A stretch of 64,000 bases of DNA from Candidatus Kaiserbacteria bacterium RIFCSPHIGHO2_01_FULL_54_36 (lineage in GTDB: Bacteria; Patescibacteriota; Minisyncoccia; Phycocordibacterales; UBA2100): NCBI GenBank assembly GCA_001781105.1, contig MFKV01000007.1, positions 4,912 through 68,911 on the forward strand. The letters run 5' to 3'. Within the stretch, counting starts at the first letter, position 1. Each line of letters starts with the position of its first letter. Below the pieces are notes generated by a model. The model made no database searches and had not been told where the DNA came from. It was given only the letters and a program-made list of their open reading frames with translations. Shown here in pieces: positions 9,852 through 62,160 of the stretch. The translations under genes and the position numbers were made by a program.

Positions 9852-9876
9852 GCTCGCTATCCTCGGCAGATAAAAC

Positions 9877-33925: not shown

Positions 33926-33968
33926 TTCGGTTCACCATTGTGCGCAGGATTTGGTATCATGAAGCCTC

Positions 33969-35435
33969 ATGTCGGAGCAGGATATACGCGCTGAGCGGCT
34001 GAAGAAGCTCGAACTTCTGAAGGAGGCGGGCATGGAGGCATACCCGACTTCAACCGCGCGCGACGCTTCCATCGCGGATTTTTTGAGCGTTTTCAAGGAA
34101 TTAGAAACAAGCGGCCGGCAATCAGTGATTGCCGGCCGCGTCATGTCTTTGCGCGGGCAGGGCGGTATTACATTTGTTGACCTCTTTGATGGAACAGGTA
34201 AAGTCCAACTTGTTCTCCAAAAGTCCAAATCCGATGAGGTGACACCTCATCGGTTCCAACTGTTTGTAGATGTCGTTGATATGGGAGATCTTATCGAAGC
34301 CGCTGGTGTTGCGTACGTCACGAAGCGCGGAGAGCAATCACTTAAAGTACAGGAGTGGAAAATGCTTGCAAAGTCCCTGTTGCCGATCCCGACAGAGCAT
34401 TTTGGTATCAAAGACGAAGAACTGATCCTGCGCCAGCGATACCTCGACATTCTTCTCAACGAAGACGTGCGCAAAATGTTCGAACGCCGCGCGCGATTCT
34501 GGCAGGCGGCACGAGAGTTCTATCTCTCTCGGGGATTTCTCGAGGTCGAGACGCCGGTTCTCGAAACGACGCCAGGCGGCGCCGACGCGCGTCCATTCAA
34601 GACGCACCACCACGCACTCGATATCGATGTGTACCTGCGCATTTCCGTAGGCGAGCTATGGCAGAAAAAACTCCTCATCGCTGGATTTCCGAAAGTATTC
34701 GAGATCGGGCGCGTATTCCGCAACGAAGGCCAATCCCGCGAGCACTTGCAGGATTACACACAACTTGAATCATATGAGGCATATGCTGATGCGAAAGCAG
34801 GGATAGAATTCCTCAAAGAGTTCTATCGGTATATTGTGAAAGAAACGTACGGGCAGTACACTTTCAAGATAGGCGAGCACGAAGGTGATTTTGCAGCAGA
34901 GTGGCCATCCATTGATTTTTGCGAAACGATACAAAAGGAGTACGGCATAGACCCGGTTACCGTTTCTGAGGACGACGCCATTGCCGCGGCGAAGAGTGCG
35001 GGCGTGCAATTCGGCGAAGCGCCAAATAAACTGCGAGCATTAGACGGATTATGGAAACTCATACGCAAGAAGATCTCTGGCCCGGCATTTCTGACTGGCG
35101 TACCGGTATTCCTCGAGCCTCTGGCAAAGCGCGTTCCAAGCAATCCAAATATCGTGGATCGTATTCAGGTGATCCTCGCTGGCTCCGAAATGGGGAAGGG
35201 GTACAGTGAGCTCAACGACCCGCAGGATCAACGCGCGCGCTTCGAGGAGCAGCAGAAACTGCGCGACGCGGGCGACGACGAAGCGCAGCGCCTCGACGAG
35301 GATTACATTCGGGCGATGGAGTACGGCATGCCGCCAGCTTTCGGTTTCGGCGTCTCTGAGCGACTTTTCTCGTTCCTCGAAAATCGCCCGGCCCACGAGG
35401 CGCAACTGTTCCCACTTGTACGCCCGAAAAAGTAG
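33969..35435 (+). CDS. lysS: lysine--tRNA ligase (class II)
   Basis: N-terminal OB-fold anticodon-binding domain and class II motifs (motif 2 FRNEG, motif 3 GFGxGxxRL). Confidence 0.9.
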   Translation: MSEQDIRAERLKKLELLKEAGMEAYPTSTARDASIADFLSVFKELETSGRQSVIAGRVMSLRGQGGITFVDLFDGTGKVQLVLQKSKSDEVTPHRFQLFVDVVDMGDLIEAAGVAYVTKRGEQSLKVQEWKMLAKSLLPIPTEHFGIKDEELILRQRYLDILLNEDVRKMFERRARFWQAAREFYLSRGFLEVETPVLETTPGGADARPFKTHHHALDIDVYLRISVGELWQKKLLIAGFPKVFEIGRVFRNEGQSREHLQDYTQLESYEAYADAKAGIEFLKEFYRYIVKETYGQYTFKIGEHEGDFAAEWPSIDFCETIQKEYGIDPVTVSEDDAIAAAKSAGVQFGEAPNKLRALDGLWKLIRKKISGPAFLTGVPVFLEPLAKRVPSNPNIVDRIQVILAGSEMGKGYSELNDPQDQRARFEEQQKLRDAGDDEAQRLDEDYIRAMEYGMPPAFGFGVSERLFSFLENRPAHEAQLFPLVRPKK

Positions 35436-38036: not shown

Positions 38037-40055
38037 GTGAAATTTAAGATCAGATCACACTATAAACCCGCCGGCGATCAGCCGACAGCTATTGCTGCAC
38101 TCGTGAAGGGCTTGGAGGGAGGCGTGCGCGATCAGACGCTATTGGGTGTCACCGGCTCGGGCAAGACATTCACTGTGGCCAATGTCATCGCCCAGGTGCA
38201 GCGCCCGACGCTGGTGATCGCGCACAACAAGACGCTCGCGGCGCAGCTCGCTGCCGAGTACCGCGAATTCTTCCCCGATGCAGCCGTACACTACTTCGTT
38301 TCCTACTACGATTACTACCAACCAGAGGCCTATGTGCCCGTTACGGACACGTATATTGAGAAGGAAGCACAGGTCAATGAAGACATCGAGCAGCTGCGGC
38401 ATGCGGCTACGCAGGCCCTGCTCACGCGAAAAGACGTGATCATCGTAGCCTCCGTATCCTGCATCTACGGCCTCGGCAGCCCCGTCGAGTATGAGAAAGT
38501 GAATTTGAAACTGACAAAAAGCGAAGCGATGACTCGCGCCACGCTCACCCGCAAGCTCATTTCTATTTATTTCGATCGAGTGACTGGTGATCTGAAGCCC
38601 GGCACCTTCCGCGCGCTCGGGGCTACTGTAGAGATCATGCCGGCAAGTGAGCGCGTGATATATCGAGTAGATCTGACGGGCGGGAAGATCGCGAAGATAG
38701 AAGAGATCGACGCAACAACGCGTGAAATTCAAGGCAAGCAGGAGGCACTCTTTATTTTCCCGGCACGGCAGTATGTGACGCCAAAAGACGTACAAGATGC
38801 AGCCCTTGCCGATATCGAGCTCGAGCTTGCAGAGCAGCTCAAGAAGTTCGATACACAAGGCAAGATCCTCGAAGCGGAGCGCCTCAAGCGTCGCACGCGC
38901 CAAGATGTCGCGATGATACGCGAGTTCGGCTTCTGCAATGGCATCGAGAACTACTCGCGGCATTTCGATAGGCGAAAGCCCGGCGAGCCGCCGTATACAC
39001 TTCTCTCCTACTTTCCAAGAGATTTCCTGACGGTCATTGATGAGTCGCACGTGACGGTGCCCCAGATCGGCGGCATGTATGCCGGCGATCGCTCGCGCAA
39101 GAACACGCTCGTCGAGCACGGCTTTCGCCTGCCAAGCGCCGTAGACAATCGACCCCTGCAGTTTGAAGAATTCCGGGAGCGGACAGGGCAGACGCTTTAT
39201 ACCTCGGCGACACCCGCACAGTTTGAGCTCGAGAAGAGCGGCGTGCCTGTGTCACAAGTTATTCGCCCGACCGGGCTCATAGACCCCGAGATCATCGTTC
39301 GCCCAATAGTCAGCGGTTCAAAATATGGACACGGCGTGTCCATATTTCCTGGACAAGTGAAAGATTTTATCGCCGAGGCAGAGGCGGTAACGAAGAAAGG
39401 CACTCGCTCGATGGTGACGGTGCTTACCAAGAAAATGGCGGAAGACCTGACGGCGTTCCTCGTAGAAAAACACATCAAGGCGCGGTATGTGCACAGCGAT
39501 GTTCTCACTATCGAGCGCATTGAGATATTGCGCGATTTCCGCAAAGGGGTCTTCGATGTCTTGGTAGGGGTCAACCTCTTGCGCGAAGGACTCGACTTGC
39601 CGGAAGTTGAGCTAGTGGGAATTCTCGATGCCGACAAAGAAGGCTTCCTGCGTTCTGAGACATCGCTCATCCAGACTATAGGGCGGGCGGCGCGCAACGT
39701 GCATGGCCGCGTCATACTGTATGCAGATCAGATGACGGGCTCGATGGAGCGTGCGATTGGCGAGACCAATCGCCGTAGGGTTATTCAGGTAGCGTACAAC
39801 AAAAAGCACAAGATAACGCCAAAGACGATCATAAAGCGCATCCACGACATCGTGGGCGATATCGAACGTGCCCGCAAGCGCGCAGTCGCCGATCTGGTAG
39901 CCTTGGATAAAGCAGCCTTCGGTGGCGACACGGCGAAGCTTCTTCGCGAAAAGCGCCGCCAAATGCACGACGCAGCGGATCGGCTCGACTTTGAGACTGC
40001 AGCGCTCCTGCGGGATGAGATACTTACCCTTGAGAAGGGTGTGAAGAAGAAATAG
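38037..40055 (+). CDS. uvrB: excinuclease ABC subunit B
   Basis: GVTGSGKT Walker A, helicase motifs, and a C-terminal UVR domain. GTG start. Confidence 0.95.
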   Translation: MKFKIRSHYKPAGDQPTAIAALVKGLEGGVRDQTLLGVTGSGKTFTVANVIAQVQRPTLVIAHNKTLAAQLAAEYREFFPDAAVHYFVSYYDYYQPEAYVPVTDTYIEKEAQVNEDIEQLRHAATQALLTRKDVIIVASVSCIYGLGSPVEYEKVNLKLTKSEAMTRATLTRKLISIYFDRVTGDLKPGTFRALGATVEIMPASERVIYRVDLTGGKIAKIEEIDATTREIQGKQEALFIFPARQYVTPKDVQDAALADIELELAEQLKKFDTQGKILEAERLKRRTRQDVAMIREFGFCNGIENYSRHFDRRKPGEPPYTLLSYFPRDFLTVIDESHVTVPQIGGMYAGDRSRKNTLVEHGFRLPSAVDNRPLQFEEFRERTGQTLYTSATPAQFELEKSGVPVSQVIRPTGLIDPEIIVRPIVSGSKYGHGVSIFPGQVKDFIAEAEAVTKKGTRSMVTVLTKKMAEDLTAFLVEKHIKARYVHSDVLTIERIEILRDFRKGVFDVLVGVNLLREGLDLPEVELVGILDADKEGFLRSETSLIQTIGRAARNVHGRVILYADQMTGSMERAIGETNRRRVIQVAYNKKHKITPKTIIKRIHDIVGDIERARKRAVADLVALDKAAFGGDTAKLLREKRRQMHDAADRLDFETAALLRDEILTLEKGVKKK

Positions 40056-40056
40056 T

Positions 40057-40980
40057 ATGGCACTCCAAGTAAAAGAAAACGTTCCGCTTGCGCCACTCAC
40101 GACCTTTGAGATAGGCGGGTCGGCAAAGTATTTTGTTGATGTAAAGACCGAAGATGAAATTCGCGAAGCGCTCGCGTGGGCGAAAGAAAAGGGAATCAAG
40201 TTTGTAGTACTTGCTGGCGGGAGTAATGTGCTGGTGCCGGATGAAGGACTCAATGCGCTTGTCATTCATATTGCCGGCGGCGAGCACTCGTTTGCCGAGT
40301 GCGAACTTATTGCTGATGCCGGCTGCGATCTTTTGGAGCTCATCAAAACGGCCGGAAAAAGGGGATTGGGCGGATGGGAGAAACTCTCGGGCATTCCAGG
40401 CACTATCGGAGGCGCGGTACGAGGCAATGCGGGAGCATTTGGGCCGGAGATAAGGGATTTTGTCGTAAGTGTTGACGCTCTCAACGCCGAAACAGGAGAG
40501 ACGAAAGAATTCTCAAATTCGGAATGTGATTTCTCATACCGCCACAGCTTTTTCAAAGATCATCCTGAGTGGATAATCACGAAGGTTCAACTTCGACTCA
40601 CTCCCATTTCTATCGATATATCGATACATTTGGTCGAAGAAACAATTCGAGAACGAGAAAAAAGGCATATTCAAAACGTGCGCGCTGCGGGATCGTACTT
40701 CGTAAATCCTGTTGCGCCAAAAGAGATCCAGGAGATGTTTGAAAAAGAGAAGGGAATGAAATCGCGTGAAGGTCGCGTGCCCGCGGGGTGGCTCATCGAG
40801 AAAGCTGGTATGAAAGGAGCAACGGTGGGTGGCGCCATCGCCTCGCTCCAGCACCCCAACTACATCGTCAATCAGGGAGGCGCGACCTCACATGACGTTT
40901 TGAATCTCGCGCAAACGATACTGTCGCAAATAGAAACCCAGTTCGGTGTCGAGCTTCACGAAGAGGCTGCAATTCTGTGA
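40057..40980 (+). CDS. murB: UDP-N-acetylenolpyruvoylglucosamine reductase
   Basis: FAD-binding PCMH domain (GGGSN) and MurB C-terminal domain. Confidence 0.9.
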   Translation: MALQVKENVPLAPLTTFEIGGSAKYFVDVKTEDEIREALAWAKEKGIKFVVLAGGSNVLVPDEGLNALVIHIAGGEHSFAECELIADAGCDLLELIKTAGKRGLGGWEKLSGIPGTIGGAVRGNAGAFGPEIRDFVVSVDALNAETGETKEFSNSECDFSYRHSFFKDHPEWIITKVQLRLTPISIDISIHLVEETIREREKRHIQNVRAAGSYFVNPVAPKEIQEMFEKEKGMKSREGRVPAGWLIEKAGMKGATVGGAIASLQHPNYIVNQGGATSHDVLNLAQTILSQIETQFGVELHEEAAIL

Positions 40981-41040
40981 CTGTGATATACTGCCCATAC
41001 CAACCCCTAGCGCAAAGCGGGGGTCGGAACTATTTGCGAT

Positions 41041-43683
41041 ATGGCAGAAAAAGATATAGGGGCAGATAAGATCGTCATAAAAGGCGCACGGACACATAAT
41101 TTGAAAAATGTGTCAGTGGAGATTCCGCGCAATAAAATGGTGGTGTTTACGGGACTTTCAGGCAGCGGCAAGTCCTCGCTTGCGTTCGACACGATCTTTG
41201 CCGAAGGGCAACGAAAGTACGTTGAGTCTCTTTCAGCATACGCGCGACAATTTTTGCGCCAAATGCAAAAGCCCGATGTTGACGAGATATCCGGCCTCTC
41301 ACCGGCAATTTCTATCGACCAAAAGAGCCGCTCCAACAATCCTCGCTCCACCGTCGCGACCATAACTGAGATCTACGACTACCTGCGTGTCCTCTACGCT
41401 CGCGTCGGGAAGCCGCACTGCATAGAGTGTGGGCGAGAAGTGCGAAAGCTTTCCAACGAGGAAATCCTGGAGTCTGTGCTAAGCATCGTTGAAGGCGCGA
41501 GAAAGGGCGATGGTCGACCTCGTAGGTCGACCATGCTGACGAAAGGAGTTTCGAATGCGAAGATCCGCATCAGTGCTCCGGTCGTGGTGGGCCGCAAGGG
41601 CGAGTACTACCAGCTCCTCTACGACATGCTCAATAAAGGATTTGAGAAAGTTATTATTGATGGACAAGAAACGTCACTACGCACACGAATAGATCTCAAG
41701 AAACATTTCAAGCACGACATAGATATTGTGGTAGACGAAATATTCATCTCTGAGTTTACCGATGATGCAAAAGCCGCACACGAGCGCGCCAGCGAGGCTA
41801 TTGAGCGGGCGCTGCATGAAGCGGGCGGCCTGGTAAAAATTACCGACGCAGAAGGGCAATCACGCATCGTATCCGCAAAATTCATGTGCCCGTACGACGG
41901 GTTCTCGTTCCCCGAGATAGAGCCGCGGCTCTTTTCCTTCAACTCGCCATACGGCGCGTGCCCGGAGTGCAAAGGCTTGGGCACGAAGTATTTTTTCGGC
42001 GATGAGCCGTGCGATATATGCCAGGGCGCCCGCTTGCGTCCCGAGGCGCTCAATGTGTTTCTGGGCAAAGTGGAGGAGCCGGCAGAGCACAATGGTCCAG
42101 CCATAGGGACCAATATCGTACATCTTTCGTCGCTTTCGATTGAGGACGCGATGGATTTCTTCAACGGGCTGAAGCTCACCAAGAAAGAACAAGAGATCTC
42201 AAAGGCCGTCATCAAAGAGATCACGAGCCGCCTCCAATTCATGCTCAATGTCGGTATCGAGTACCTAACGCTCGATCGTAAGGCCAATACGCTCTCAGGG
42301 GGTGAGGCGCAGCGCATTCGGCTTGCTTCTCAACTCGGTAGCGGGCTTGTGGGTGCCTTGTACGTGCTCGATGAGCCCACCATAGGACTTCACCAACGCG
42401 ACAACGACAAGCTCATACAGACCCTTCAGCGCCTGCGCGATCTCGGCAACACCGTGCTCGTCGTCGAACACGACGAAGACACGATATTCGCTTCTGATTA
42501 CATCGTGGATCTTGGCCCCGGTGCCGGTGTACACGGCGGTGAGATCGTCGTGTCGGGATGGCTAGACGATCTTTTGACCGCGAAAACCAATAAGTCGGGC
42601 TCTCGAACGCTCGGATATTTGCGCGAAGAGGAAGCCATTCCTATACCGGAGAAACGTCGCACCGCCGACCGAGGGAAGATAAAAATACGCGGCGCTTCCA
42701 AATTCAATATCCAGAATATGAATATTGATGTACCACTCGCGAAGTTCGTCGCCGTTTCGGGAGTTTCCGGCTCGGGCAAGTCCACATTTCTGTATGAAAT
42801 TCTCCATCGCAACCTGCAAGCACGCTTCGACAAGCGTTATCGAACTGCGAAAACCTACAATGCAAAAGAATTTTCCGGCACCGAGTATCTCGGCCGGGCG
42901 ATATTGATAGATCAATCGCCGATCGGGCGCACGCCCCGCTCGAATCCTGCCACCTACACGGGAGCCTGGACCCACATCCGCGATATGTTCGCGATGTCGG
43001 AAGAGGCCCGAGCGCGCGGTTGGGGCCCCGGGCGCTTCTCGTTCAACGTGAAAGGTGGGCGCTGCGAAGCGTGCCAGGGCAACGGCCTCATTGCCGTAGA
43101 GATGCACTTCTTGCCGACCGTGTATGTCACCTGCGACGTGTGCAACGGCAAGCGATTCATGAAAGAAACACTGGAGGTCAAATTCAAGAACAAAAACATT
43201 CACCAGATACTTTCGATGACCGTCGAAGAAGCGCGAGCATTCTTCGATGATATTCCCGCAATCGCAGACCGCCTGCAGAGCTTATCTGACGTTGGGCTCG
43301 ATTACCTTGAGCTCGGGCAAAGCGCGACAACGCTTTCCGGCGGGGAAGCACAGCGCGTGAAGATCGCCTCAGAGCTGTATCGCCCACTCATCCAGAAGAG
43401 CATCTACTTGCTCGATGAGCCGACGGTCGGCTTGCACTACGACGACGTCGCGAAGCTTATCCAAATACTGCAGAAGCTTGTCGAGCGTGGCAACACGGTC
43501 GTCACGATCGAGCACAACCTAGATGTCTTGAAATCCGCGGATTACATCATTGATATGGGCCCGGAAGGCGGATCCGCGGGCGGCGACATCGTCGCGAAGG
43601 GGACTCCTGAAGAAGTTTCTAAAACTGATGGTTCGCACACAGGCTATTACTTGAAACGAGTTTTGAAAAAATCCCGCAGGTAG
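41041..43683 (+). CDS. uvrA: excinuclease ABC subunit A
   Basis: Two ABC ATPase modules ([18 protein letters not shown]), zinc-finger CxxC pairs, LSGGE signatures. Contains the in-frame 25-nt palindrome at 41510..41534. Confidence 0.95.
41510..41534. repeat. 25-nt perfect palindrome ATGGTCGACCTCGTAGGTCGACCAT, in-frame inside uvrA (encodes DGRPRRSTM)
   Basis: 10-nt arms containing two SalI-type GTCGAC cores. Identical copies at 47670 and 60160; a compensatory variant at 45770. Confidence 0.85.
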
Positions 43684-43835
43684 TGTATATTCAGTGGGAC
43701 CTGTTCTCCTAGCCAGAGACACGTCTCCCGCGTAGCGTTTGGGAAGCTGTTGTTCTGTAGCGTTTGTTCGTTGCGTCTGTCAGTAGTAGCCCCGATCAGT
43801 AGCGTCAGTTGTTGGCGTAGATCGGGGTTTGTTGT

Positions 43836-46800
43836 TTATGAACGATACTCCTCCCACGACTTCGCTTTCAACCCATTGCCTTTCTGTTCCGCAAGCGCTG
43901 TCACGAAGGCCTCTGCGAGCTGGCGGTTGGTGATGAGCGGAATGTTCATATCTACCGCTTTGCGGCGGATGATGGAGCCGTCGGTCGTCTCGCCGGCGAA
44001 GGCACGCGTCGGGATATTGATGATGAGATCCATTCTACCGAGCGCCTCGGAGACATTGGGCGCTTTTTTACTGCTGATCTTGTAGAGCTTTTCACATGGC
44101 AGGCCAGACTCATGCAAATATTCTGCAGTATGCTCTGTCGCAAAGAGTTTGAATTTCGTATTAGAAAGCAGTTTCATCGTTTCCAGTAGCTTCACCTTGC
44201 TCTCCTCGCCGCCGATTGAGACGAGGATATTTTTGCGCGGCAAGCGAAAGCCGGCAGCCATCATGGACTTGAGGAGTGCTTCAGAGTAGGAATCCCCGAA
44301 ACAGGCGACTTCGCCTGTGGACGCCATTTCTACACCTGTCCGTGGGTCAGCGCCTTTGATGCGGCTGTATGAAAATTGTGGCGATTTGACTGCAACACAA
44401 TCGAGTTCGACCGTGCGGTAGTTGCCCGAGACATCCTTGCCAAGCATTGCACGCGTAGCAATGTCAATGAAATTGTGTCCGGTGACTTTGGAAACGAAGG
44501 GGAAGCTGCGCGAGGCGCGCACGTTGCATTCGATGACTTGCAAGCGATTATCCTTTGCTATGAACTGCATGTTGAAGGGCCCGGTGATCTTGAGGGCTTT
44601 GATAATTGCTTTGGTGATCTCTTTGGCACGGCGGATAGTCTCCAGATACGTGCGCTGCGGAGGAAGCACTACCGTAGCGTCACCAGAGTGCGTGCCGGCA
44701 TTCTCCACGTGTTCGGTAATGGCATAGATAGCGAGTGTGCCGCGAGAAGCGACGCCATCGATCTCGATCTCCCGCGCGTTCTCTATGAATTTGGATATGA
44801 CGACCGGATGTTCAGGCGACATGATGGCCGCGCGGTCCAAAAAATTCTGAAGCGTTTTCCTGTCGTACGCGACCTTCATTGCCGCGCCTGACAGGACGTA
44901 TGACGGGCGCACGAGTACGGGGTACCCGATTGTCTCAGCGACAGCTGCTGCCTGTGAGGGAGAGGTGACTTCCGTCCATGCCGGCTGCTCTACTCCGAGC
45001 GTATCGAGAAGCTTGGAGAACACATGCCTGTCTTCCGCGCGGTCGATATCCTCCGGATTCGTGCCGAGAATTTTGATCTTGTTCTTATGGAGTTTAAGCG
45101 CAAGATTGTTGGGGATCTGGCCGCCGGTCGAGACCACGACCCCCTCGGGCTTTTCGAATTCCACGATATCGAGAATGCGCTCGAGCGTAAGCTCTTCGAA
45201 GTAGAGCCGATCCGACATGTCGTAGTCGGTCGAGACAGTCTCCGGATTCGAATTGATCATAATGGTGCGCTTACCGCAGGCCTTCAGCGTCTTCAGCGCC
45301 TGCACGCACGACCAGTCGAACTCGACCGATGACCCGATGCAGTATGGGCCCGAACCCAGCACTGCAACCTGCTTTTTTCCCGGGATGACGTCGTGTTCAG
45401 TGCCATGATAGGTGAGATACAGATAGTTCGTCTGCGCGGGGAATTCGCCTGCGAGCGTATCGATCTGTTTGACTACCGGCAGAATCCTTAGCTTTTTGCG
45501 CAGTGCGCGTACAGACTCTTCGTTAATCTTTTTTATCACTGCAATTTGCGCATCAGAAAATCCGAGCTTCTTTGCTGCTTGCATCGTTTGCTTATTGAGG
45601 CGGTTCTTCGAGATGTGACGCTCGAACTCTACGATGTTGCGCATCTTCTCCAAAAACCACCGATCGATCCCCGAAAGTTTGTGAATCTTCTCTACCGACG
45701 TTCTTCTACGAAATGCCGCTGCGATCGCAAAAATTCTTCGGGTCGTAGGTATCCTGACCTCTTTTTCGCATGATGGACCTCGTAGGTCCATCATTGTTGC
45801 CGGAAGCGAGAATCCACTCGCACCTACATTTAGCATGCGAAGCGCTTTTTGCAGCACCTCTTCGAACGAGCGGCCGATCGCCATCACTTCGCCTACGCTT
45901 TTCATTTCTGTCCCGATACGTTGTGCGGCATTCTCAAATTTGCCCAAGTCCCAACGCGGCATCTTGAGCACCAAATAATCGAGCGCTGGCTCGAAGCAGG
46001 CGGTCGTGATACCCGTGACGGAATTTTTGATCTCGGGCAGCGTGTAGCCGAGTGCGAGTTTGGCCGCGACGAACGCCAACGGATAGCCGGTCGCCTTCGA
46101 AGCGAGTGCCGATGAGCGGCTTAGGCGCGCATTGACCTCGATGACGCGGTAATCTGCTGTCTCGGGGTGCAGTGCATATTGGATATTGCACTCGCCGACG
46201 ATTCCCAAGTGTCGAATGGTCCTGATAGAAATTTCGCGCAGCCGATGGTATTCCTCATTGGAGAGTGTTTGAGAAGGAGCGACTACCATGCTCTCGCCTG
46301 TATGTATTCCCATCGGATCGATGTTTTCCATGTTGCACACGGTGATGCAGTTATCGGCCCTGTCGCGCACGACTTCGTATTCGACCTCCTTCCAGCCGCT
46401 TAGGTTTTCCTCGATGAGTACTTGCGGAGTCGACCTGAATACTTCCGAAAGCTTCGCGGACAGTTCCTCCGTATTTTTTACCATTCCCGACCCTTCACCA
46501 CCGAGAGCAAATCCCGCGCGCATCATGACGGGGTAGCCAATGTCCGCCGCGGCTGCGAGTGCCTCTTTCGTATTTTTTGCAGCGCGGCTGCGAGCAGTCT
46601 TTACTTCTATCTCATGGAGGCGCTTCACGAAAAGGTCGCGATCTTCCGTGTCGCGAATCACCGATACAGGCGTACCAAGTACGCGCACGCCGAATTTCCT
46701 GAGAGTGCCACTTTTCTCGAGCGCGAGGCCGAGGTTGAGCGCTGTCTGGCCACCGAATGAGAGAAGGATCGCGTCAGGCTTTTCTTTCTTGATCACCTGC

Positions 46801-47018
46801 GTTGCGAAGTGCTCGGTAAGGGGAAGGAAGTACACGGTATCTGCCAGGCCTTGGTCGGTTTGCACGGTCGCGATGTTGGGATTCATGAGCACTACCTCGA
46901 TCTTTTCTTCCTTCAGTGCCTTGATCGCTTGTGAGCCGCTGTAGTCGAATTCTCCCGCCTGGCCGATCTTCAGACCACCGCTGCCAAGCAATAATACTTT
47001 TTTGAGTTTATGCTTCAT
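43836..47018 (-). CDS. carB: carbamoyl-phosphate synthase large subunit
   Basis: Duplicated ATP-grasp halves, oligomerisation domain and MGS-like domain. 1060 aa. Confidence 0.95.
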   Translation of the reverse strand: MKHKLKKVLLLGSGGLKIGQAGEFDYSGSQAIKALKEEKIEVVLMNPNIATVQTDQGLADTVYFLPLTEHFATQVIKKEKPDAILLSFGGQTALNLGLALEKSGTLRKFGVRVLGTPVSVIRDTEDRDLFVKRLHEIEVKTARSRAAKNTKEALAAAADIGYPVMMRAGFALGGEGSGMVKNTEELSAKLSEVFRSTPQVLIEENLSGWKEVEYEVVRDRADNCITVCNMENIDPMGIHTGESMVVAPSQTLSNEEYHRLREISIRTIRHLGIVGECNIQYALHPETADYRVIEVNARLSRSSALASKATGYPLAFVAAKLALGYTLPEIKNSVTGITTACFEPALDYLVLKMPRWDLGKFENAAQRIGTEMKSVGEVMAIGRSFEEVLQKALRMLNVGASGFSLPATMMDLRGPSCEKEVRIPTTRRIFAIAAAFRRRTSVEKIHKLSGIDRWFLEKMRNIVEFERHISKNRLNKQTMQAAKKLGFSDAQIAVIKKINEESVRALRKKLRILPVVKQIDTLAGEFPAQTNYLYLTYHGTEHDVIPGKKQVAVLGSGPYCIGSSVEFDWSCVQALKTLKACGKRTIMINSNPETVSTDYDMSDRLYFEELTLERILDIVEFEKPEGVVVSTGGQIPNNLALKLHKNKIKILGTNPEDIDRAEDRHVFSKLLDTLGVEQPAWTEVTSPSQAAAVAETIGYPVLVRPSYVLSGAAMKVAYDRKTLQNFLDRAAIMSPEHPVVISKFIENAREIEIDGVASRGTLAIYAITEHVENAGTHSGDATVVLPPQRTYLETIRRAKEITKAIIKALKITGPFNMQFIAKDNRLQVIECNVRASRSFPFVSKVTGHNFIDIATRAMLGKDVSGNYRTVELDCVAVKSPQFSYSRIKGADPRTGVEMASTGEVACFGDSYSEALLKSMMAAGFRLPRKNILVSIGGEESKVKLLETMKLLSNTKFKLFATEHTAEYLHESGLPCEKLYKISSKKAPNVSEALGRMDLIINIPTRAFAGETTDGSIIRRKAVDMNIPLITNRQLAEAFVTALAEQKGNGLKAKSWEEYRS
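45770..45794. repeat. variant 25-nt palindrome ATGATGGACCTCGTAGGTCCATCAT, in-frame inside carB (encodes MMDLRGPS)
   Basis: Same central CCTCGTAGG. Arm changes are compensatory (G-to-A with C-to-T, and C-to-G with G-to-C), so the palindrome is preserved. Confidence 0.8.
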
Positions 47019-48112
47019 ACCTTCTTCAATGAGCGGATGAAGTCGTCGAAGATCCAGGCGGTATCTGTGGGGCCGGGCGAGGCCTCGGGGTGGAATTGCA
47101 CCGAGCGCCAGGGCTTGCTCTTGTGCCGTATCCCTTCGTTGGAGCCGTCATTGGCGTTCACAAACCACTCTTCCCACCCTTCGGGAAGCGTTTTTCCGTC
47201 TACGGCGAAGCCGTGATTTTGGGAGGTGATGTAGCATTTACCCTGAGCGGAGTCGAAGGGCCGGCCACCCTTTAGTTCAATGCATGGCTGGTTTTGGGAG
47301 CGATGGCCGTATGTAAGCTTGTACGTCGAGGCACCCGCCGCGAGCGCCAAGAGCTGGTTGCCAAGGCACACTCCCAGTATCGGTTTGTTGTCCTTCATAG
47401 CTGCGCGAATATGCCCTATCGGGATGCCGCACTGCGTCGGATCACCAGGGCCGTTGGAGAGAACGAGCGCATCGTACTTATCGGAAGTGAAGTCGTAATC
47501 CCACGGTACTCGCGTCACGGTGGTTTCGGGTCGTATGAGCGAGCGGACGATGTTCTCTTTCATTCCGCAATCGAGCGCAATTATTTTGATCGGGCCAGTA
47601 CCGTATGTCTTCTTTTTCCTCGGACTGACTTTTGCAACAAGATTTTCGTCGTTTGGATCCTTGAACTCCATGGTCGACCTCGTAGGTCGACCATGCTCCA
47701 ATCGCCCCAGCATTACCCCGTGTTCGCGGAGCTTCTTCGTAAGTGCGCGGGTGTCTACTCCAGTGATCGCCGGCACACCGGAGGCTTTGAGCCATTCGGC
47801 AAGTGAGTGCTTGGCATCGTGATGAGAATAGTTCTCCGAGTATTCCGAAACGACGAGCCCTGCTATTTGTATCTTGGACGACTCGAAGTTTTTGTCGGGC
47901 TTGCCCTTCGAAGCCTTGGCGAAGGAGGGCACGCCGTAGTTGCCGACCAGCGGATAAGTGAGTACTACGATCTGACCGGCGTATGAAGGATCTGAAAGAC
48001 TTTCAACGTAACCCGTCATCCCAGTGTTGAAAACGACCTCACCAGGGACGTTCTTCGGAGCACCAAAGCTCTGGCCCTCGAACACTGAACCGTCTTTGAG
48101 AATCAATTTCAT
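47015..48112 (-). CDS. carA: carbamoyl-phosphate synthase small subunit
   Basis: CPSase small-chain N-domain plus class I GATase (Cys-His-Glu triad context GVCLGNQLL). Overlaps the carB start by 4 nt. Confidence 0.95.
   Translation of the reverse strand: MKLILKDGSVFEGQSFGAPKNVPGEVVFNTGMTGYVESLSDPSYAGQIVVLTYPLVGNYGVPSFAKASKGKPDKNFESSKIQIAGLVVSEYSENYSHHDAKHSLAEWLKASGVPAITGVDTRALTKKLREHGVMLGRLEHGRPTRSTMEFKDPNDENLVAKVSPRKKKTYGTGPIKIIALDCGMKENIVRSLIRPETTVTRVPWDYDFTSDKYDALVLSNGPGDPTQCGIPIGHIRAAMKDNKPILGVCLGNQLLALAAGASTYKLTYGHRSQNQPCIELKGGRPFDSAQGKCYITSQNHGFAVDGKTLPEGWEEWFVNANDGSNEGIRHKSKPWRSVQFHPEASPGPTDTAWIFDDFIRSLKKV
47670..47694. repeat. 25-nt palindrome ATGGTCGACCTCGTAGGTCGACCAT, in-frame inside carA (encodes HGRPTRSTM on the gene strand)
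   Basis: Identical to the uvrA copy. Lies in the linker between the CarA N-domain and the GATase domain. Confidence 0.85.
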
Positions 48113-48140
48113 AGTAAGGACCCTTCGACTACGCTCAGGG

Positions 48141-48268
48141 CAAGAAAAAGCCCGCTTTGGGCGGGCTCAAAATCGAGATAAAAAAATGCACCCTCGTGGG
48201 TGTTCTTTGTTGCAAACTTCTTGGAGGCCATTAAAGCTGAATTATAACCGATTGAAGTCCACTGTCAA
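48141..48268 (-). promoter_or_regulatory. carA promoter and leader: -35 TTGACA (48263..48268), 16-nt spacer, -10 TATAAT (48241..48246), then two hairpin+U-tract terminator-like structures before the carA ATG
   Basis: Reverse complement reads TTGACAgtggacttcaatcggtTATAAT. Leader hairpins are CACCC-acga-GGGTG+UUUUUUU (48179..48202) and AGCCCGC-ccaaa-GCGGGCU+UUUUUCUU (48141..48167). Confidence 0.55.
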
Positions 48269-48306
48269 CTCTGCTATTGTCTCGCTGGGACTAGTCGGAG
48301 GTTATC

Positions 48307-48615
48307 ATGAAAAAGCACTATCCTGTCGGCCCGTGGATGATCACGGGATTCGCCTCGGTCGGCTTCGAATACGAACCTCGTGTCGTTATCGAAGCCTTGC
48401 GTAGGCGCTTTAGAATACCGCGGCAGGGTACCGGGGAAACGGTATTCAAGGCAGTAGTCCAATGTTGCGTGAGGCGGGAATTCCCGAAAAGAAACAAGCG
48501 CCTTCGAAAGAAGGCCGTCAACAGGGCGCTACGCCTCTACGAGCGGTACAACACGCTGCCCCAGTACGTCATGGCGATTTACTGGGGCAAACCCGCGAAG
48601 CTCATCGACCACTGA
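48307..48615 (+). CDS. hypothetical basic protein
   Basis: GGAGGT RBS 6 nt before the ATG. An intrinsic terminator follows at 48629..48665. Confidence 0.5.
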   Translation: MKKHYPVGPWMITGFASVGFEYEPRVVIEALRRRFRIPRQGTGETVFKAVVQCCVRREFPKRNKRLRKKAVNRALRLYERYNTLPQYVMAIYWGKPAKLIDH

Positions 48616-48628
48616 AGTTTTGTGTGCT

Positions 48629-48665
48629 CGTGCCGCGATCGGTTGGTCGCGGCACGTTTTTTTTG
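48629..48665 (+). terminator. intrinsic terminator CGTGCCGCGA-tcggttgg-TCGCGGCACG-TTTTTTTT
   Basis: Perfect 10-bp stem plus T8. Confidence 0.75.
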
Positions 48666-48677
48666 TATGGTTAGGGG

Positions 48678-49946
48678 ATGCAGCGGGATCATCTCAAAAA
48701 ATCCAAATTGCCGGATGAGCCGGGAGTTTATATGTTTAAGAAAGGGAAGAAAATACTCTACATCGGCAAAGCGGCGAGCTTGCGCGACCGGGTACGAAGC
48801 TACTTTTCTTCGGATCTGGGCAAAGGCCGCGCGCCCACTATTGTGAAAATGGTCGAGGATGCCGATTCGGTCGACTGGCAGACGACTGATTCGGTCCTCG
48901 AAGCCCTAATCGTTGAGGCCAATCTCATCAAGCGACACCAGCCACCCGCCAATGTGGATGAGAAGGACAACAAGAGTTTCAACTATCTTGTCATCACCAA
49001 AGAAAGTCCGCCAGCCGGCGGATTCCCTCGCGTACTTATCGTTCGCGGTCGGGAACTGTTTCAGGGATGGAAGGAGGCAGACATCAAAAATCTGTTCGGA
49101 CCGTTCCCGGGCGGCTTGAGCCTCAAGGAAGCGATCAAGATCGTCCGTAAGATCTTCCCGTTTCGCGACTCCAAGTGCATTCCTTGTATTGACCAACTAA
49201 AAACTAAAAACTTGAAACTCAAAACTGCTTGTAAGCCGTGTTTCAATCGTCAGATCGGGTTGTGCCCGGGAGTTTGTACGGGCGAGATAACAGCACAGGA
49301 GTACAGAAAAGTTGTTCGCAACATTTGTGAACTGTTCTCGGGCAATTTCCACGGGCTCAAGCGGCGCCTGGTAAGCGAAATGAAAGCAGCGTCCGAAGGT
49401 GAAAGATACGAACAAGCAGCGAGATTGCGCTCACAAGTACATGCGCTCGAGCACATCCGCGACGTCTCTCTAATCAAAGATGAACTTCGTGTGGCGCCGG
49501 GTGGCGGAGTGCGCATCGAAGCATTCGACGTCGCGCATACCTCGGGCACTGAGACCGTGGCGGTGATGACGGTTGCCAACAACGGGGAGATGGTCAAGGC
49601 GGCGTACCGCATGTTCAAGATCAGAAGCGCAACCAACGATGACGTCGGCGCGCTCGCAGAAGCCCTCTCCCGCAGGCTCAACCACCCAGAGTGGCCATTA
49701 CCGAGGGTATTTGTCGTCGATGGCGGTAAAGGGCAGATGAATGCCGCGAGAAAAATACTGCAAGAAGCGGGCATCGAAGTACCGCTTGTAGGCGTCGTAA
49801 AGAACGAATTTCACAAGCCTGAGCGATTGATTGGAGATGAGCGCGCGATCGTAGCGTATGAGAAAGATATTCTGCTTGCCAACTCTGAGGCGCATAGATT
49901 TGGTATAACGTGGCACCGGAAACGCAGAACACACGCCTTGTTCTAA
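48678..49946 (+). CDS. uvrC: excinuclease ABC subunit C, short form without the C-terminal HhH domain
   Basis: N-terminal GIY-YIG (GVYMF..GKKILYIGKA), UVR domain (ERYEQAARLRSQVHALE), and RNase H-like endonuclease domain (FDVAHTSG). Ends at 422 aa with no (HhH)2. Confidence 0.85.
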   Translation: MQRDHLKKSKLPDEPGVYMFKKGKKILYIGKAASLRDRVRSYFSSDLGKGRAPTIVKMVEDADSVDWQTTDSVLEALIVEANLIKRHQPPANVDEKDNKSFNYLVITKESPPAGGFPRVLIVRGRELFQGWKEADIKNLFGPFPGGLSLKEAIKIVRKIFPFRDSKCIPCIDQLKTKNLKLKTACKPCFNRQIGLCPGVCTGEITAQEYRKVVRNICELFSGNFHGLKRRLVSEMKAASEGERYEQAARLRSQVHALEHIRDVSLIKDELRVAPGGGVRIEAFDVAHTSGTETVAVMTVANNGEMVKAAYRMFKIRSATNDDVGALAEALSRRLNHPEWPLPRVFVVDGGKGQMNAARKILQEAGIEVPLVGVVKNEFHKPERLIGDERAIVAYEKDILLANSEAHRFGITWHRKRRTHALF

Positions 49947-49972
49947 CGTTCGTTGGTATACTGGAGAGCGAT

Positions 49973-50428
49973 ATGCGCAGTACACTGTATACGTTTCTAG
50001 TTGTGGGAATCATCCTGTTGTGCGCGGGGGCCTACTACTTCCACCGGACTGCACAAGCCAATAAGCTCTCGCACATCGAATCTCTTGCCGCTACGCGGAA
50101 TGTTCCAGCAACCGTATGCGAGTTTACGGAGGGAGATTTTGAAGGCGCCCGTGGGGGACTATTGTATGTGCGCAATGCACGCATCGTGTTGCACACGATG
50201 TACGTCGAAGGTAATTACGCGGGACGTCTCCACGTCTTGATCGAACCCGACAGTACGTACTTTATCGATCCTGCGACCATGGACACGATACCGATCGGTT
50301 TGAGTGCCGAAGAACAGATCACACTGATCAACGATGAGATCTTAAGACCCACGTGGAAATGCTCACCGTGGTGGTTTCCCGACGATTCAATATTTGATAT
50401 CCCGAAACCAGCACCCGAAGAAGAGTGA
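49973..50428 (+). CDS. hypothetical membrane-anchored protein
   Basis: N-terminal TM helix LYTFLVVGIILLCAGAYYF. No domain recognised. Confidence 0.45.
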   Translation: MRSTLYTFLVVGIILLCAGAYYFHRTAQANKLSHIESLAATRNVPATVCEFTEGDFEGARGGLLYVRNARIVLHTMYVEGNYAGRLHVLIEPDSTYFIDPATMDTIPIGLSAEEQITLINDEILRPTWKCSPWWFPDDSIFDIPKPAPEEE

Positions 50429-50440
50429 TATAATTTTGGT

Positions 50441-51412
50441 ATGACACGCACGAGCGTCGGCATTTTGCGCGGCGGGACATCGAGCGAATACAACCTCTCG
50501 CTCAAATCCGGCGCTGCGATGATGGCGGCGCTTCCTGAGGATCGCTTCGACACGCGCGATATTTTCATAGACAAGCGAGGGTACTGGCACATGAGAGGCC
50601 AGCCCGTGGACGCTGCCCGCGCGCTTTCGCAAATTGACGTCGTTCTCAATGCACTTCACGGCGGAGTGGGCGAAGATGGCACAGTACAGCGCATCGTGGA
50701 GCGCGCGGGCGTCGCTCACGCCGGCGCCTCACCCCTTGCCTCGGCCATTGCCCTAAATAAGATCCGCGCTCGCGAGATCTTGCAAAGAGCTGGCATTCGT
50801 ATGCCACGCGCTGTCTCATTTTCATTGAACAATGACCTCGACACCGGAGAGATGGCACGTTTTGTGTTCTCCCAATTTGGCCCGCCGTATGTCGTGAAGC
50901 CCGCAAGCGAAGGTGCATCATTTGGCATCCGGATCGCCATGACGCCGCTCGAATTACCCGATACCTTGGGTGACACGCTCGATGCATATGGCTCCGCGCT
51001 CGTCGAAGAATACATGCGCGGGCAAGAGGCGAGCGTGGGCGTTATCGAGAATTTCCGCGGAGAAGATCTCTACGCGCTTCCGCCGGCGCACGTCATCGCT
51101 CCCGAGGGCGCTTGGATGCTACACCCGATCCATCACGAAGAGGGAACGTTACGCCACCTGGTCCCGAGCCAATTTTCCCACTCGGAGAAACAGGCGCTTG
51201 CCGACCTCGCGCGCGCGGCACACCGCGTGCTCGGCCTCGGGCATTTCTCTCGCGCTGACATCATCCTCACCCCGCGTGCCCCGTACCTTTTGGAAATGAA
51301 CGCCATACCCGGCCTTTACCCAGGCGCATCATTCCCGCCAATGCTCGAATCGGTCGGCTCCTCCGTGCGCGAATTCCTAGAACATGCTATAAGTCTTGCG
51401 AAGGGTAGATGA
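50441..51412 (+). CDS. ddl: D-alanine--D-alanine ligase
   Basis: ATP-grasp fold with the Ddl N-domain and conserved E..G.E...N motifs. Confidence 0.9.
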   Translation: MTRTSVGILRGGTSSEYNLSLKSGAAMMAALPEDRFDTRDIFIDKRGYWHMRGQPVDAARALSQIDVVLNALHGGVGEDGTVQRIVERAGVAHAGASPLASAIALNKIRAREILQRAGIRMPRAVSFSLNNDLDTGEMARFVFSQFGPPYVVKPASEGASFGIRIAMTPLELPDTLGDTLDAYGSALVEEYMRGQEASVGVIENFRGEDLYALPPAHVIAPEGAWMLHPIHHEEGTLRHLVPSQFSHSEKQALADLARAAHRVLGLGHFSRADIILTPRAPYLLEMNAIPGLYPGASFPPMLESVGSSVREFLEHAISLAKGR

Positions 51413-51454
51413 GAGGGGTCAGCCCCCGTCACCAGAAAAGCTCTTGTGATTTGT

Positions 51455-51706
51455 ATGCACTACGTGTATCTTCTCAAGAGTGAGAAAGACGGTCTGCTGT
51501 ATATTGGTTATACAAATGATCTGAAAAGGCGTTTCGCGGAGCACAACAGTGGCCTCAGCAAGGCAACAAAACCGAGAGCACCTTTTCAGCTCGTTTATTA
51601 CGAAGCATACAAATCACGGGCTGATGCATTGTTTAGAGAGAAAAATCTGAAACGATACTCCAGAAGCTATCAAGAGTTGAAAAAGCGAGTAAAGGGTAGC
51701 ATCTAG
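51455..51706 (+). CDS. stand-alone GIY-YIG nuclease-domain protein (second paralogue)
   Basis: VYLLKSEKDGLLYIGYTNDLKRRFAEHN motif. Confidence 0.7.
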   Translation: MHYVYLLKSEKDGLLYIGYTNDLKRRFAEHNSGLSKATKPRAPFQLVYYEAYKSRADALFREKNLKRYSRSYQELKKRVKGSI

Positions 51707-51722: not shown

Positions 51723-51794
51723 GGGCCAGTAGTTCAGTGGTAGAACGTCTCATTTGCAATGAGAAGGTCGGGGGTTCGATTCCTCTCTGGTCCA
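51723..51794 (+). tRNA. tRNA-Ala (anticodon TGC)
   Basis: Manual cloverleaf: acceptor GGGCCAG/CUGGUCC with the G3:U70 alanine identity pair, anticodon loop TTTGCAA, T-loop TTCGATT, discriminator A. No encoded CCA. Confidence 0.8.
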
Positions 51795-51797
51795 CAA

Positions 51798-60061: not shown

Positions 60062-60664
60062 TCAACGCCTGCTTTCTATCGCGCTCTTGATGGTGTCGGG
60101 ATCTGCGTATTCCAATTCGCTGCCGGTCGAGAGCCCGCGGCCCAGCGCCGTAATCTTCAATGGTCGACCTCGTAGGTCGACCATTTTCTTTCTGACTTGT
60201 TCTGCAGTCGCGTCGCCCTCGGGATTCGCAGGGAATGCGAGTATGATTTCCATTAATCCCGCTTTTGTTCGAGCGGGCACGGCCTCAAGAAGCTGCTTCA
60301 TGCGCAAATTGTTGCCCGTATCGCTTGCGAGCGAGACAGTACCGCCGAGTACAAAGTAGTGCCCGCGGAAATTATGCGAATGTTCGAGGGCGGCAAGGTC
60401 CGCGTCACTTGCGACGACAGCGAGAAGTGAGGCATCACGTCCAGGATCCGTACAGATCGCGCAGACTTTCTCTTTTCCGCTAAAGAAGCGCATGCACTCT
60501 GCACACTGGTGCACCGAGCCGCCAAGCGATTGCACCGCATCCATTAGTTCGCGACGCGTCGCAGCGGAGGAGCGCAGCAAAAATTGCACGAATCGTTGCG
60601 CTTGGCGCGGACCGATACCGGGAAATCTTTCGAATAATTGAGTCAGTCGTTCTATCGAGTCCAT
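60062..60664 (-). CDS. recR: recombination protein RecR
   Basis: HhH motif FPGIGPRQAQR, C4 zinc finger CAECMRFFSGKEKVCAIC, Toprim domain. Contains the in-frame 25-nt palindrome at 60160..60184. Confidence 0.9.
   Translation of the reverse strand: MDSIERLTQLFERFPGIGPRQAQRFVQFLLRSSAATRRELMDAVQSLGGSVHQCAECMRFFSGKEKVCAICTDPGRDASLLAVVASDADLAALEHSHNFRGHYFVLGGTVSLASDTGNNLRMKQLLEAVPARTKAGLMEIILAFPANPEGDATAEQVRKKMVDLRGRPLKITALGRGLSTGSELEYADPDTIKSAIESRR
60160..60184. repeat. 25-nt palindrome ATGGTCGACCTCGTAGGTCGACCAT, in-frame inside recR (encodes MVDLRGRP)
   Basis: Identical to the uvrA and carA copies but read in a different frame. Confidence 0.85.
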
Positions 60665-60765: not shown

Positions 60766-62160
60766 TCAAAACGGCGATTCGCCAGAGCCTGCAACTTCCG
60801 TTTCTTCAGGTTTGTAATCGCCGAAGTCGCTCCTATCAATAGAGAGGAAGGTCGTCTTTTCTTCGTCGAAGCGGAGCTCCACTTTGCCGACCGGCCCGTT
60901 GCGATGTTTTTCTACCAAGATCTCGGCAATGCCGGGCCGGTCGGAATTCTCATTCATCTTGTCGTCACGATGGATGAACATTACGACATCGGCGTCTTGT
61001 TCGATGGAGCCCGAATCGCGAAGATCCGATAGCCGTGGGCGGCCTCGTCGTTGCTCAACCGCGCGTGATAACTGCGAAAGTGCCAAGACGGGGATCTCAA
61101 GCTCGCGCGCCATAGCCTTGAGTGAGCGGGAGATCTCAGTGATCTGCTGTACCAGATTGTCGCTCGAGCGCGAATAGGTGGGGGTGATGAGTTGCAGATA
61201 ATCCACGATGATGAGCCCGAGGTCTTTTTCCATTTTGAGCCGGCGCGCGACACTACGCATTGCAAGGACGGTCGTCGAAGCCTTGTCGTCAATATAGATC
61301 GGTGCCTCAGCCAAAACTCCCATACCTGACTGCAATCGCTCGAATTCGTCTTCATCTTTTATCTTGCCGGTGCGAAGCCGCCATGAGTTGACGCCGGCCT
61401 GCGCGGCAAGCATGCGATCCACAAGCTGCTGGGAGCTCATCTCGAGCGAGAAGATGCCGACGGGCACGTTGTACTTCGTTGCGCTCTGGCGTGCGATGTC
61501 GAGCGCAAGGGCGGTTTTGCCCATTGAGGGGCGGGCGGCGAGTATGACGAGGTCGGATTTTTGGAAGCCGGCGAGCAAATTGTCGAGCTGAGGAAAGCCC
61601 GATGGCACGCCGCGAATGGAGCCGCTGTGCTTCTGGAGTCCCTCAAGCCGCTCCCATGCTTCAGCGAGCTCGTCTTTGATGGCAGTGAAAGAGCGCAGCA
61701 TCGGCGTCTGCGTCACGGAGAAAACTGCAGACTGTGCCTCGTCGAGGATCGTCTCGATATCCCGGTCCTCTTCAAAGCCCAGTTCTCCGACCTTCGCCGC
61801 GGCATCAATAAGGCTGCGCAATACGAATTTCGTCTGCACCCCTTGCGCATAATGCCGTGCCGAGCCGGGGCTCGCGGCTGCACCAACCATCTCGGAGAGG
61901 TATGCCGCCCCACCGATCTCGTTCAAGAGTTTGCGCTCCTTGAGCTTGCTAGAAAGCGTTACGACATCGATCGGTTCACCCTTCGCAAAAAGCGCAAGCA
62001 TGGCGTCGTATATAGTGCGATGTTTGCCGGCATAGAAGGAGTCCACGCCGACCAAGTCTGCGACCTCGTAGATCGCATTTTGGTTGAGCATGAGAGCTCC
62101 AAGGAGAGCTCGCTCCATTTCTATGTCTTGCGGCGGCGCTTTTACGCTGCTGGTTCCCAT
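60766..62160 (-). CDS. dnaB: replicative DNA helicase
   Basis: Walker A GARPSMGKT and DnaB N- and C-domains. 464 aa with no intein. Confidence 0.95.
   Translation of the reverse strand: MGTSSVKAPPQDIEMERALLGALMLNQNAIYEVADLVGVDSFYAGKHRTIYDAMLALFAKGEPIDVVTLSSKLKERKLLNEIGGAAYLSEMVGAAASPGSARHYAQGVQTKFVLRSLIDAAAKVGELGFEEDRDIETILDEAQSAVFSVTQTPMLRSFTAIKDELAEAWERLEGLQKHSGSIRGVPSGFPQLDNLLAGFQKSDLVILAARPSMGKTALALDIARQSATKYNVPVGIFSLEMSSQQLVDRMLAAQAGVNSWRLRTGKIKDEDEFERLQSGMGVLAEAPIYIDDKASTTVLAMRSVARRLKMEKDLGLIIVDYLQLITPTYSRSSDNLVQQITEISRSLKAMARELEIPVLALSQLSRAVEQRRGRPRLSDLRDSGSIEQDADVVMFIHRDDKMNENSDRPGIAEILVEKHRNGPVGKVELRFDEEKTTFLSIDRSDFGDYKPEETEVAGSGESPF

Follow-up and report, generated by a model that had tools for sequence, protein, structure and literature searches.

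The 64,000-nt stretch of DNA analyzed here (the window) lies on contig MFKV01000007.1 of Candidatus Kaiserbacteria bacterium RIFCSPHIGHO2_01_FULL_54_36 (locus-tag prefix A2763), and the UvrA protein it encodes is 100% identical to that of this organism. The window carries three exact copies of a 25-nt palindrome, ATGGTCGACCTCGTAGGTCGACCAT, and one exact copy of an arm-compensated variant, ATGATGGACCTCGTAGGTCCATCAT, within the uvrA, carA, recR, and carB genes. The copies (described as REP-like for their resemblance to repetitive extragenic palindromes, REPs), their host genes, and a possible fifth copy in a dnaB open reading frame (ORF) are as follows.

41041..43683, + strand: host gene uvrA, 880 aa
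41510..41534, + strand: REP-like hairpin copy, GTC stem variant, loop CGT on the + strand; in-frame in uvrA, codes (D)GRPRRST(M)
43836..47018, - strand: host gene carB, 1060 aa
45770..45794, + strand: REP-like hairpin copy, ATG stem variant (two compensatory pair changes); in-frame in carB (- strand), codes MMDLRGPS
47015..48112, - strand: host gene carA, 365 aa
47670..47694, + strand: REP-like hairpin copy, GTC stem variant; in-frame in carA (- strand), codes (H)GRPTRST(M)
60062..60664, - strand: host gene recR (A2763_02575), 200 aa
60160..60184, + strand: REP-like hairpin copy, GTC stem variant; in-frame in recR (- strand), codes MVDLRGRP
62056..62080, + strand: possible decayed copy GTCTGCGACCTCGTAGATCGCATTT, 8 of 11 stem pairs; in the dnaB ORF; low confidence

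An exact search of the window finds the 25-mer and its compensated variant just where an earlier note, made from the sequence alone, had placed them, and 100 shuffles of the window give a chance expectation of 0 matches to ATGGTCGACCTCGTAGGTCGACCAT. That note was also right that the copies lie in coding sequence and keep the host frame: all four are inside long intact ORFs, the peptides it quoted are correct, the palindrome is read in two frames only, and the loop orientation is identical in all four (+ strand). The possible decayed copy is borderline, scoring 17 of 22 where shuffles yield about 0.1 such matches per window, and in dnaB it is read in the third, otherwise unused frame.

Positions 4/22 and 6/20 distinguish the two forms of the element, each change being compensatory. 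Because T11 pairs with A15, the element consists of an 11-bp stem and a 3-nt loop (CGT); folded as single-stranded DNA the 25-mer reaches -11.5 kcal/mol (z = -6.7), and individual copies range from -9.5 to -11.5 kcal/mol. At 25 nt with an 11-bp stem, it falls among the hairpin-forming palindromes of 20-40 nt by which REP/RAYT systems (REPs with their REP-associated tyrosine transposases, RAYTs) are defined. Across 14 distinct variants, 7 of the 11 stem pairs have changed on both sides and 96.8% of cells are paired, a level of covariation matched by none of 500 shuffles, and slid registers are also far off. The compensatory arm changes together with this covariation argue for selection on a nucleic-acid hairpin rather than on the peptide, as the earlier note had proposed. 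The hairpin is a natural, non-random feature; at Rfam gathering thresholds the window contains two tRNAs only, and no known RNA family corresponds to the hairpin.

The family, which the earlier note had taken to have four copies, is not confined to this window. A scan with ATGNTNGACCTCGTAGGTCNANCAT against one genome per species yielded 39 stretches of DNA, and every one came from Patescibacteria (Kaiserbacteria, Paceibacterota, Saccharibacteria, Nomurabacteria, Taylorbacteria, and Parcubacteria); the repeat loci examined are stretches of at most 8-11 kb around the matches. Stem positions 4-6/20-22 read GTC, TTC, ATG, ATT, or TTG, with a complementary right arm. About two-thirds of the copies (31 of 48) lie inside ORFs of at least 200 aa, where the palindrome is read in frames 0 or 1 only (frame 2 in 0 of 35); others are intergenic or in unrelated genes. 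Housekeeping genes of at least 18 kinds carry in-frame copies; beyond the window these include the genes for a MurD-like ligase (twice, at the same site), an HhH-GPD glycosylase, PheT, a DNA polymerase III delta-like subunit, ATP synthase gamma, TyrRS, UvrB, a PIF1-like helicase (twice, at the same site), asparagine synthase, CarB, TrmD, MnmA, and surface proteins. In L007, L026, and L031 the element likewise occupies the CarA linker that holds a window copy, in either loop orientation, and in L037 and several other homologues it occupies the corresponding UvrA linker; at these CarA and UvrA sites the stem variant is each genome's own, again with the loop in either orientation.

A few loci show compound arrangements. 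At L042 7906-7953 an MnmA-like ORF contains two copies that overlap by 2 nt and have opposite loop orientations, and copies are nested in longer palindromes at L041 2097-2151 (inside the gene described next), L025, L039, and L016, which points either to insertion into hairpins already present or to palindromes growing outward.

Where a locus has two or three copies, these cluster around one gene of 220-230 aa, a Y1 HUH transposase, found by tblastn beside the copies in L012, L017, L019, L021, L024, L028, and L041. Metagenome contigs bearing the window's exact 25-mer gave three further loci (L046-L048), and all three have this gene. The full layout comprises one copy 0-25 nt upstream of the ATG, one in-frame near residue 50, and one 0-71 nt past the stop codon. 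Copies stand on both sides of the gene in L017, L021, L024, L028, L041, L046, and L047, and on one side together with an internal copy in L012, L019, L048, L051, and L052; in all, copies bracket the transposase gene and also lie in-frame inside it at more than 10 loci from different classes, with the stem variant shared within each locus. Even strongly diverged stems, as in L017 (GACTT/AAGTC) and L048 (TATCTGGATTT...AAATCCAGATA), keep the T-CGT-A loop. Stem variants are largely uniform within a genome and match the copies that flank that genome's transposase gene, which points to copying from, or co-evolution with, the local system.

The transposase gene is absent from the window itself by tblastn. 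The window's genome nevertheless encodes the enzyme, as the prefix shared by the transposase (A2763_04250; accession OGG50062.1) and RecR (A2763_02575) indicates: A2763_04250 lies at locus L051/L052, with an exact GTC 25-mer 5 nt upstream of its start codon. Transposase and dispersed copies likewise occur in one genome for JBBUAA, DATDXU, LCQW, and CAZNVT. The hairpin family, with its covarying stem, is linked both physically and genomically to a Y1 HUH transposase.

The protein matches Pfam PF01797 (Y1_Tnp) at 23.4 and 24.1 bits against a cut-off of 23, and H82-Y83-H84 (the HUH motif) and Y142 within HY[IV]HLNP are both retained without exception in 70 homologues. At E < 1e-10 the family comprises 5550 proteins; of the 120 listed, those that carry a name belong to Patescibacteria. 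An AlphaFold model of the transposase (predicted local distance difference test score, pLDDT, 85.5; predicted template-modeling score, pTM, 0.82) has as its best structural match in the PDB 4ER8 chain A, a complex of the E. coli RAYT with a REP hairpin (E = 3e-5); TnpA structures of IS608, ISDra2, and IS200 come next (probability 1.0). The link to solved RAYT structures came from this fold comparison alone; sequence searches did not reveal it.

The internal copy appears to be a fixture of the gene. A peptide M-x-[DE]-[LI]-[RV]-[GSN]-x-[ST], the frame-0 reading of this hairpin family, occurs at the same position in 120 of the 120 closest transposase homologues; the alternation of R and V within it tracks the loop orientation (ACG versus CGT), and back-translation of peptides such as MIEIRSQS allows for a perfect palindrome. 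The hairpin-coded segment (residues 46-57) is disordered in the model, with pLDDT < 50.

The bracketing of a Y1 HUH gene by copies, its presence in the same genome as the dispersed copies, and the covarying stems together constitute the architecture of a REP/RAYT system, or REPtron, that is, a single-stranded-DNA Y1 HUH transposase of the RAYT/IS200-IS605 superfamily together with its cognate hairpin. We therefore consider it very probable that the 25-mers are the REP-type hairpin repeats of a Patescibacteria REPtron, and the earlier description of a mobile hairpin that colonizes genes much as the Rickettsia palindromic elements (RPEs) do was essentially right. By analogy with the E. coli RAYT and IS608 TnpA, the transposase would recognize the hairpin once it has folded in single-stranded DNA, as at replication forks; the likely recognition element would be the invariant upper stem GACCT/AGGTC with the T-CGT-A loop; and cleavage and rejoining through Tyr142 would copy or renew hairpins around the chromosome. 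Because Patescibacteria genomes are about 90% coding, many copies would land in genes, where they would persist only if the net length change keeps the frame, only in the two frames that give G/R/P/S/T-rich peptides, and only at flexible, length-variable linkers, while stem positions 4-6/20-22 drift by compensatory change.

Several observations weigh against assigning the 25-mers to a REPtron: i) the 25-mer lacks a terminal GTAG or CGTC tag of the REP/RAYT type, since it begins with ATG and ends with CAT and contains GTAG only across the junction of loop and stem; ii) representative genomes have about 4-8 exact copies (counting exact matches only), and the copies are singlets rather than REPIN doublets; iii) the carB copy, with its ATG stem, differs from the copies flanking its own genome's transposase gene; iv) the match of the transposase to the NCBIfam model REP_Tyr_transpos (NF047646; E = 7e-8, 32.4 bits) does not reach the equivalog cut-off of 80, and searches of PDB sequences by phmmer and with a 70-sequence profile gave no match; v) the displacement of native codons described below is not predicted by the IS200/IS605 insertion model; and vi) no insertion event was caught. 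With regard to ii), the REPs of REP/RAYT systems are typically extragenic and present in more than 100 copies per genome (PMC2817692), unlike the 25-mer as counted here; low-copy RAYT groups do exist, groups 1 and 4 having about 12-14 occurrences of the flanking 16-mer per replicon (PMC2817692, PMC3479197, PMC5581495). With regard to iv), the transposase is, by sequence, a distant relative of the curated RAYT equivalog and not itself an equivalog.

How the copies came to lie in their host genes was examined by comparison with relatives that lack them. A sibling genome (L049) is syntenic across uvrB-murB-uvrA-carB-carA-uvrC, with UvrA 90% identical, and has no hairpin copy at the uvrA, carA, or carB site, the genes being intact. 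Codon alignment with this genome shows 10 codons versus 7 in uvrA, 11 versus 7 in carA, and one additional codon in carB, and the 19-aa RecR linker at the copy falls within the native range of 16-20 aa among 78 RecR homologues. The net changes in uvrA, carB, carA, and recR are thus +3, +1, +4, and about 0 codons, with 5-8 native codons displaced per copy, rather than the insertions of 8-9 residues that the earlier note had described. Among 120 UvrA homologues, the linker that holds the uvrA copy is hypervariable in length; copies inside genes occupy frame-compatible positions in variable linkers only, and they are absent from the syntenic sites of this close relative. Nor did we find the 2-nt target duplication that the earlier note had given as one possibility, or any flank consensus, in the 12 nt on each side of 63 copies, apart from a weak preference for A(-1)/T(+1). 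Clusters of RecR, CarA, and CarB at 90% identity contain no REP-free member.

Clean insertion was considered and is rejected on the gain of only 0 to 4 codons, as judged from PDB homologues, from 120 CarA, 120 UvrA, and 78 RecR homologues, and from the L049 alignment. The replaced codons would fit either with insertion plus deletion in linkers that vary freely in length or with a genuine overwriting or conversion step. The second of these possibilities leads to the best surviving alternative, that the copies belong to the same REP/RAYT family and were written over existing linker DNA instead of being simply inserted as 25 nt, whether by transposase-catalyzed exchange of hairpin segments or by template switching or gene conversion, with the hairpin inside the transposase gene as the master copy. 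Such overwriting would account for the replacement of 5-8 native codons by each of the four window copies, for the lack of target duplication and flank consensus, for orthologous carA, uvrA, murD, and PIF1-like helicase sites that carry their own genome's stem variant in either orientation, and for the constant position of the hairpin-coded segment in all 120 transposase homologues. However, insertion followed by deletion under selection would give the same picture in such freely variable linkers; the nearest empty alleles share only 72-90% protein identity, so that the junctions cannot be read at the DNA level; and no such mechanism is known for Y1 transposases, nor to our knowledge is a templated "linker-rewriting" activity known for any HUH transposase. 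We accordingly regard overwriting as unlikely, and we are equally doubtful that a RAYT-type transposase uses its internal master or its flanking copies to overwrite the variable linkers of housekeeping proteins; were it so, the copies in a genome would be kept identical, and the carA, uvrA, murD, and helicase linkers would have been rewritten repeatedly across classes.

Returning to the REPtron, its link to the transposase could be questioned if the repeat were a selfish hairpin that, in the manner of RPEs or CGTC-type REPs, lacks a dedicated enzyme and for which the transposase gene is one more permissive landing site. The many kinds of host gene are in keeping with this, as is the location of the transposase-internal copy in a disordered loop, as in other hosts, and CGTC REPs indeed have no dedicated transposase (PMC3733652). 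But chance landing does not sit well with a three-copy bracket at one and the same gene in more than 10 loci from different classes, with matching stems that include highly divergent ones, with the presence of that gene at 3 of 3 metagenome matches to the window variant, or with an internal segment in 120 of 120 homologues, and we think this explanation very improbable.

We give as little credence to the hairpin being an immobile cis-acting signal under host selection, such as a DNA-uptake sequence, a site for a nucleoid or repair protein, or a regulatory mRNA hairpin. The single loop orientation (+ strand) of the four window copies and the over-representation of repair genes among the hosts (uvrA and recR here; uvrB, glycosylase, and helicase elsewhere) could be read in this way, and E. 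coli REPs have acquired host roles; yet 4 copies in 64 kb is far too low a density for uptake, compared with about 1 per kb for the DNA uptake sequence, none of the three copies is present at the syntenic sites of the sibling genome, where the genes are intact, copies elsewhere are intergenic or in unrelated genes with the loop orientation flipping freely, and Rfam has no match.

The earlier suggestion that stand-alone GIY-YIG nuclease genes of the window drive the repeat had nothing beyond co-location in its favor and is highly improbable: the 86-aa ORF at 51446-51706 has no homologue in the other repeat-carrying loci by tblastn, and the gene that does accompany the repeats is the Y1 HUH transposase. 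Finally, because the four starts (41510, 45770, 47670, and 60160, with spacings of 4260, 1900, and 12490) are all multiples of 10, we considered a planted sequence, assembly artefact, or adapter remnant, which is ruled out for practical purposes by the reproduction of window 39836-51018 (with three copies at the same spacing and 0-1 mismatch) in three independent assemblies from different samples (JGI, ENA), by exact look-ups of the host proteins in NCBI, JGI, ENA, and Logan (more than 20 public contigs encode the exact RecR protein and contain the 25-mer within its gene), and by the occurrence of the motif in 39 stretches of DNA from many studies; the coordinates appear to be a coincidence.

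REP/RAYT systems have been described in Escherichia coli, Pseudomonas, Stenotrophomonas, and others (Nunvar 2010, PMC2817692; Messing 2012, PMC3479197; Bertels 2017, PMC5581495). The Patescibacteria system resembles these in its short dispersed palindrome, in the Y1 HUH gene bracketed by copies, in the covarying stems, and in the best fold match (4ER8); it differs in having a perfect 11-bp stem with a 3-nt loop, no end tag, few exact copies, and singlets, in having about two-thirds of its copies inside ORFs, and in a transposase about 60 aa longer that always has a hairpin-coded segment in its own ORF. The earlier note overstated the novelty of the intragenic copies. Di Nocera et al. (2013; PMC3733652) reported REPs in coding regions, many of them in replication and repair genes including uvrA, uvrB, and recBCD; the intragenic REPs of Opitutus terrae, Thioalkalivibrio, Xanthomonas, and others are in-frame and were read as tolerated in flexible linkers, and recB of two Xanthomonas species has REPs at about the same site (PMC3733652). 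In those genomes, however, intragenic REPs are outnumbered within a large extragenic family, and over half of them are dimers that code 20-30 aa (PMC3733652), whereas the Patescibacteria copies are mostly single 25-nt units, mostly intragenic, and belong to a lineage not covered there.

Other small palindromes share some of these properties. Like the 25-mer, RPEs are in-frame palindromes at permissive positions of functional genes, but they are longer (RPE-1 measures 100-150 nt) and, as far as is known, specific to Rickettsia and without a transposase, whereas the 25-mer is found only in Patescibacteria and is transposase-linked; Di Nocera et al. call RPEs only "longer palindromic insertions" (PMC3733652). 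Judging from the predicted structure, IS200/IS605 elements (IS608, ISDra2) would share the transposase fold, the catalytic motifs, and hairpin recognition in single-stranded DNA; there the whole unit, a gene with two different end hairpins, moves to a place beside a specific 4-5-nt target, whereas here only the 25-nt hairpin is dispersed, and without flank consensus. Also very small are the small dispersed repeats (SDR) of cyanobacteria, reportedly described by Elhai et al. in 2008, which are said to be hairpin-forming sequences of 21-27 nt that insert into other sequences, conserved genes included; they resemble the 25-mer in being very small, hairpin-forming, and able to enter conserved genes, and differ from it in lineage and sequence. 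We know of no cognate transposase identified for them. In the full-text literature we found no description of REP/RAYT systems or of in-frame palindromes in Patescibacteria. The element is of a known kind, in a new and large lineage, and its unusual features include the obligatory hairpin-coded segment in the transposase gene and the systematic displacement of linker codons.

The 25-mer is not the only palindrome here, at least three further families having been seen. A second perfect palindrome, AAATATGGACACGGCGTGTCCATATTT (39321-39347; 12-bp stem, loop GGC), is in-frame in the uvrB-like ORF 38037-40055, where it codes KYGHGVSI; the DNA element also lies in the carA linker of a Saccharibacteria genome (L045, 7194-7220), and the peptide in the CarA linker of P0010, P0061, P0082, P0091, and P0114, making this a second in-frame palindrome family that extends across classes. 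A third family, xxGGCAAGGC-NNN-GCCTTGCCxx, is represented at 52199-52221 in the window, in-frame in the AMP-binding ORF 51759-54032 (coding RQGKALP), and occurs also in L009, L027, L031, L046, and L048; a fourth, CGGAGCTTCCGGAGGAAGCTCCG, recurs in L027, L048, and L051. In total the window contains about 19 distinct perfect hairpins, counting stems of 9 bp or more and loops of 3-6 nt, compared with about 1 in mononucleotide shuffles; those at 34111-34139 and 34231-34253 lie in the long ORF 33963-35435, and those at 9876, 25108, and 36299 are terminator-like or intergenic.

The CarA and UvrA linkers of Patescibacteria carry many other inserts of 8-17 aa, for example GPSTSLRAG, KGLTMSFKGHRKS/KGHRKSFQGLTMS, REPTSGKSTEVGSR, and RDFVNPDISGFTKSRH (in homologues P0011, P0014, P0055, P0078, P0256, P0272, P0275, P0281, P0287, P0288, P0110, and others). 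Some CarA and UvrA homologues have two tandem REP units, and some 10-aa "empty" UvrA linkers (SNPPTKSEKS) resemble decayed REPs. Among neighboring genes, the UvrC-like protein of 422 aa encoded at 48678-49946 has UvrC_M, UVR, and RNaseH-like domains and no Pfam GIY-YIG match on record; the stand-alone 86-aa GIY-YIG ORF is 1.5 kb downstream of it and adjoins the tRNA gene at 51723-51794, and no gene is called at the equivalent position of the sibling genome.

The finding would place a REP/RAYT-type system in the candidate phyla radiation and would explain a class of small odd insertions in the housekeeping proteins of Patescibacteria. The system would be a compact one, a 25-nt perfect hairpin and a 227-aa enzyme with its own substrate sequence within its gene, and as such could help settle how RAYTs move REPs. 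For annotation, it means that these 8-aa segments would be repeat-derived and should not be taken as lineage-specific functional motifs.

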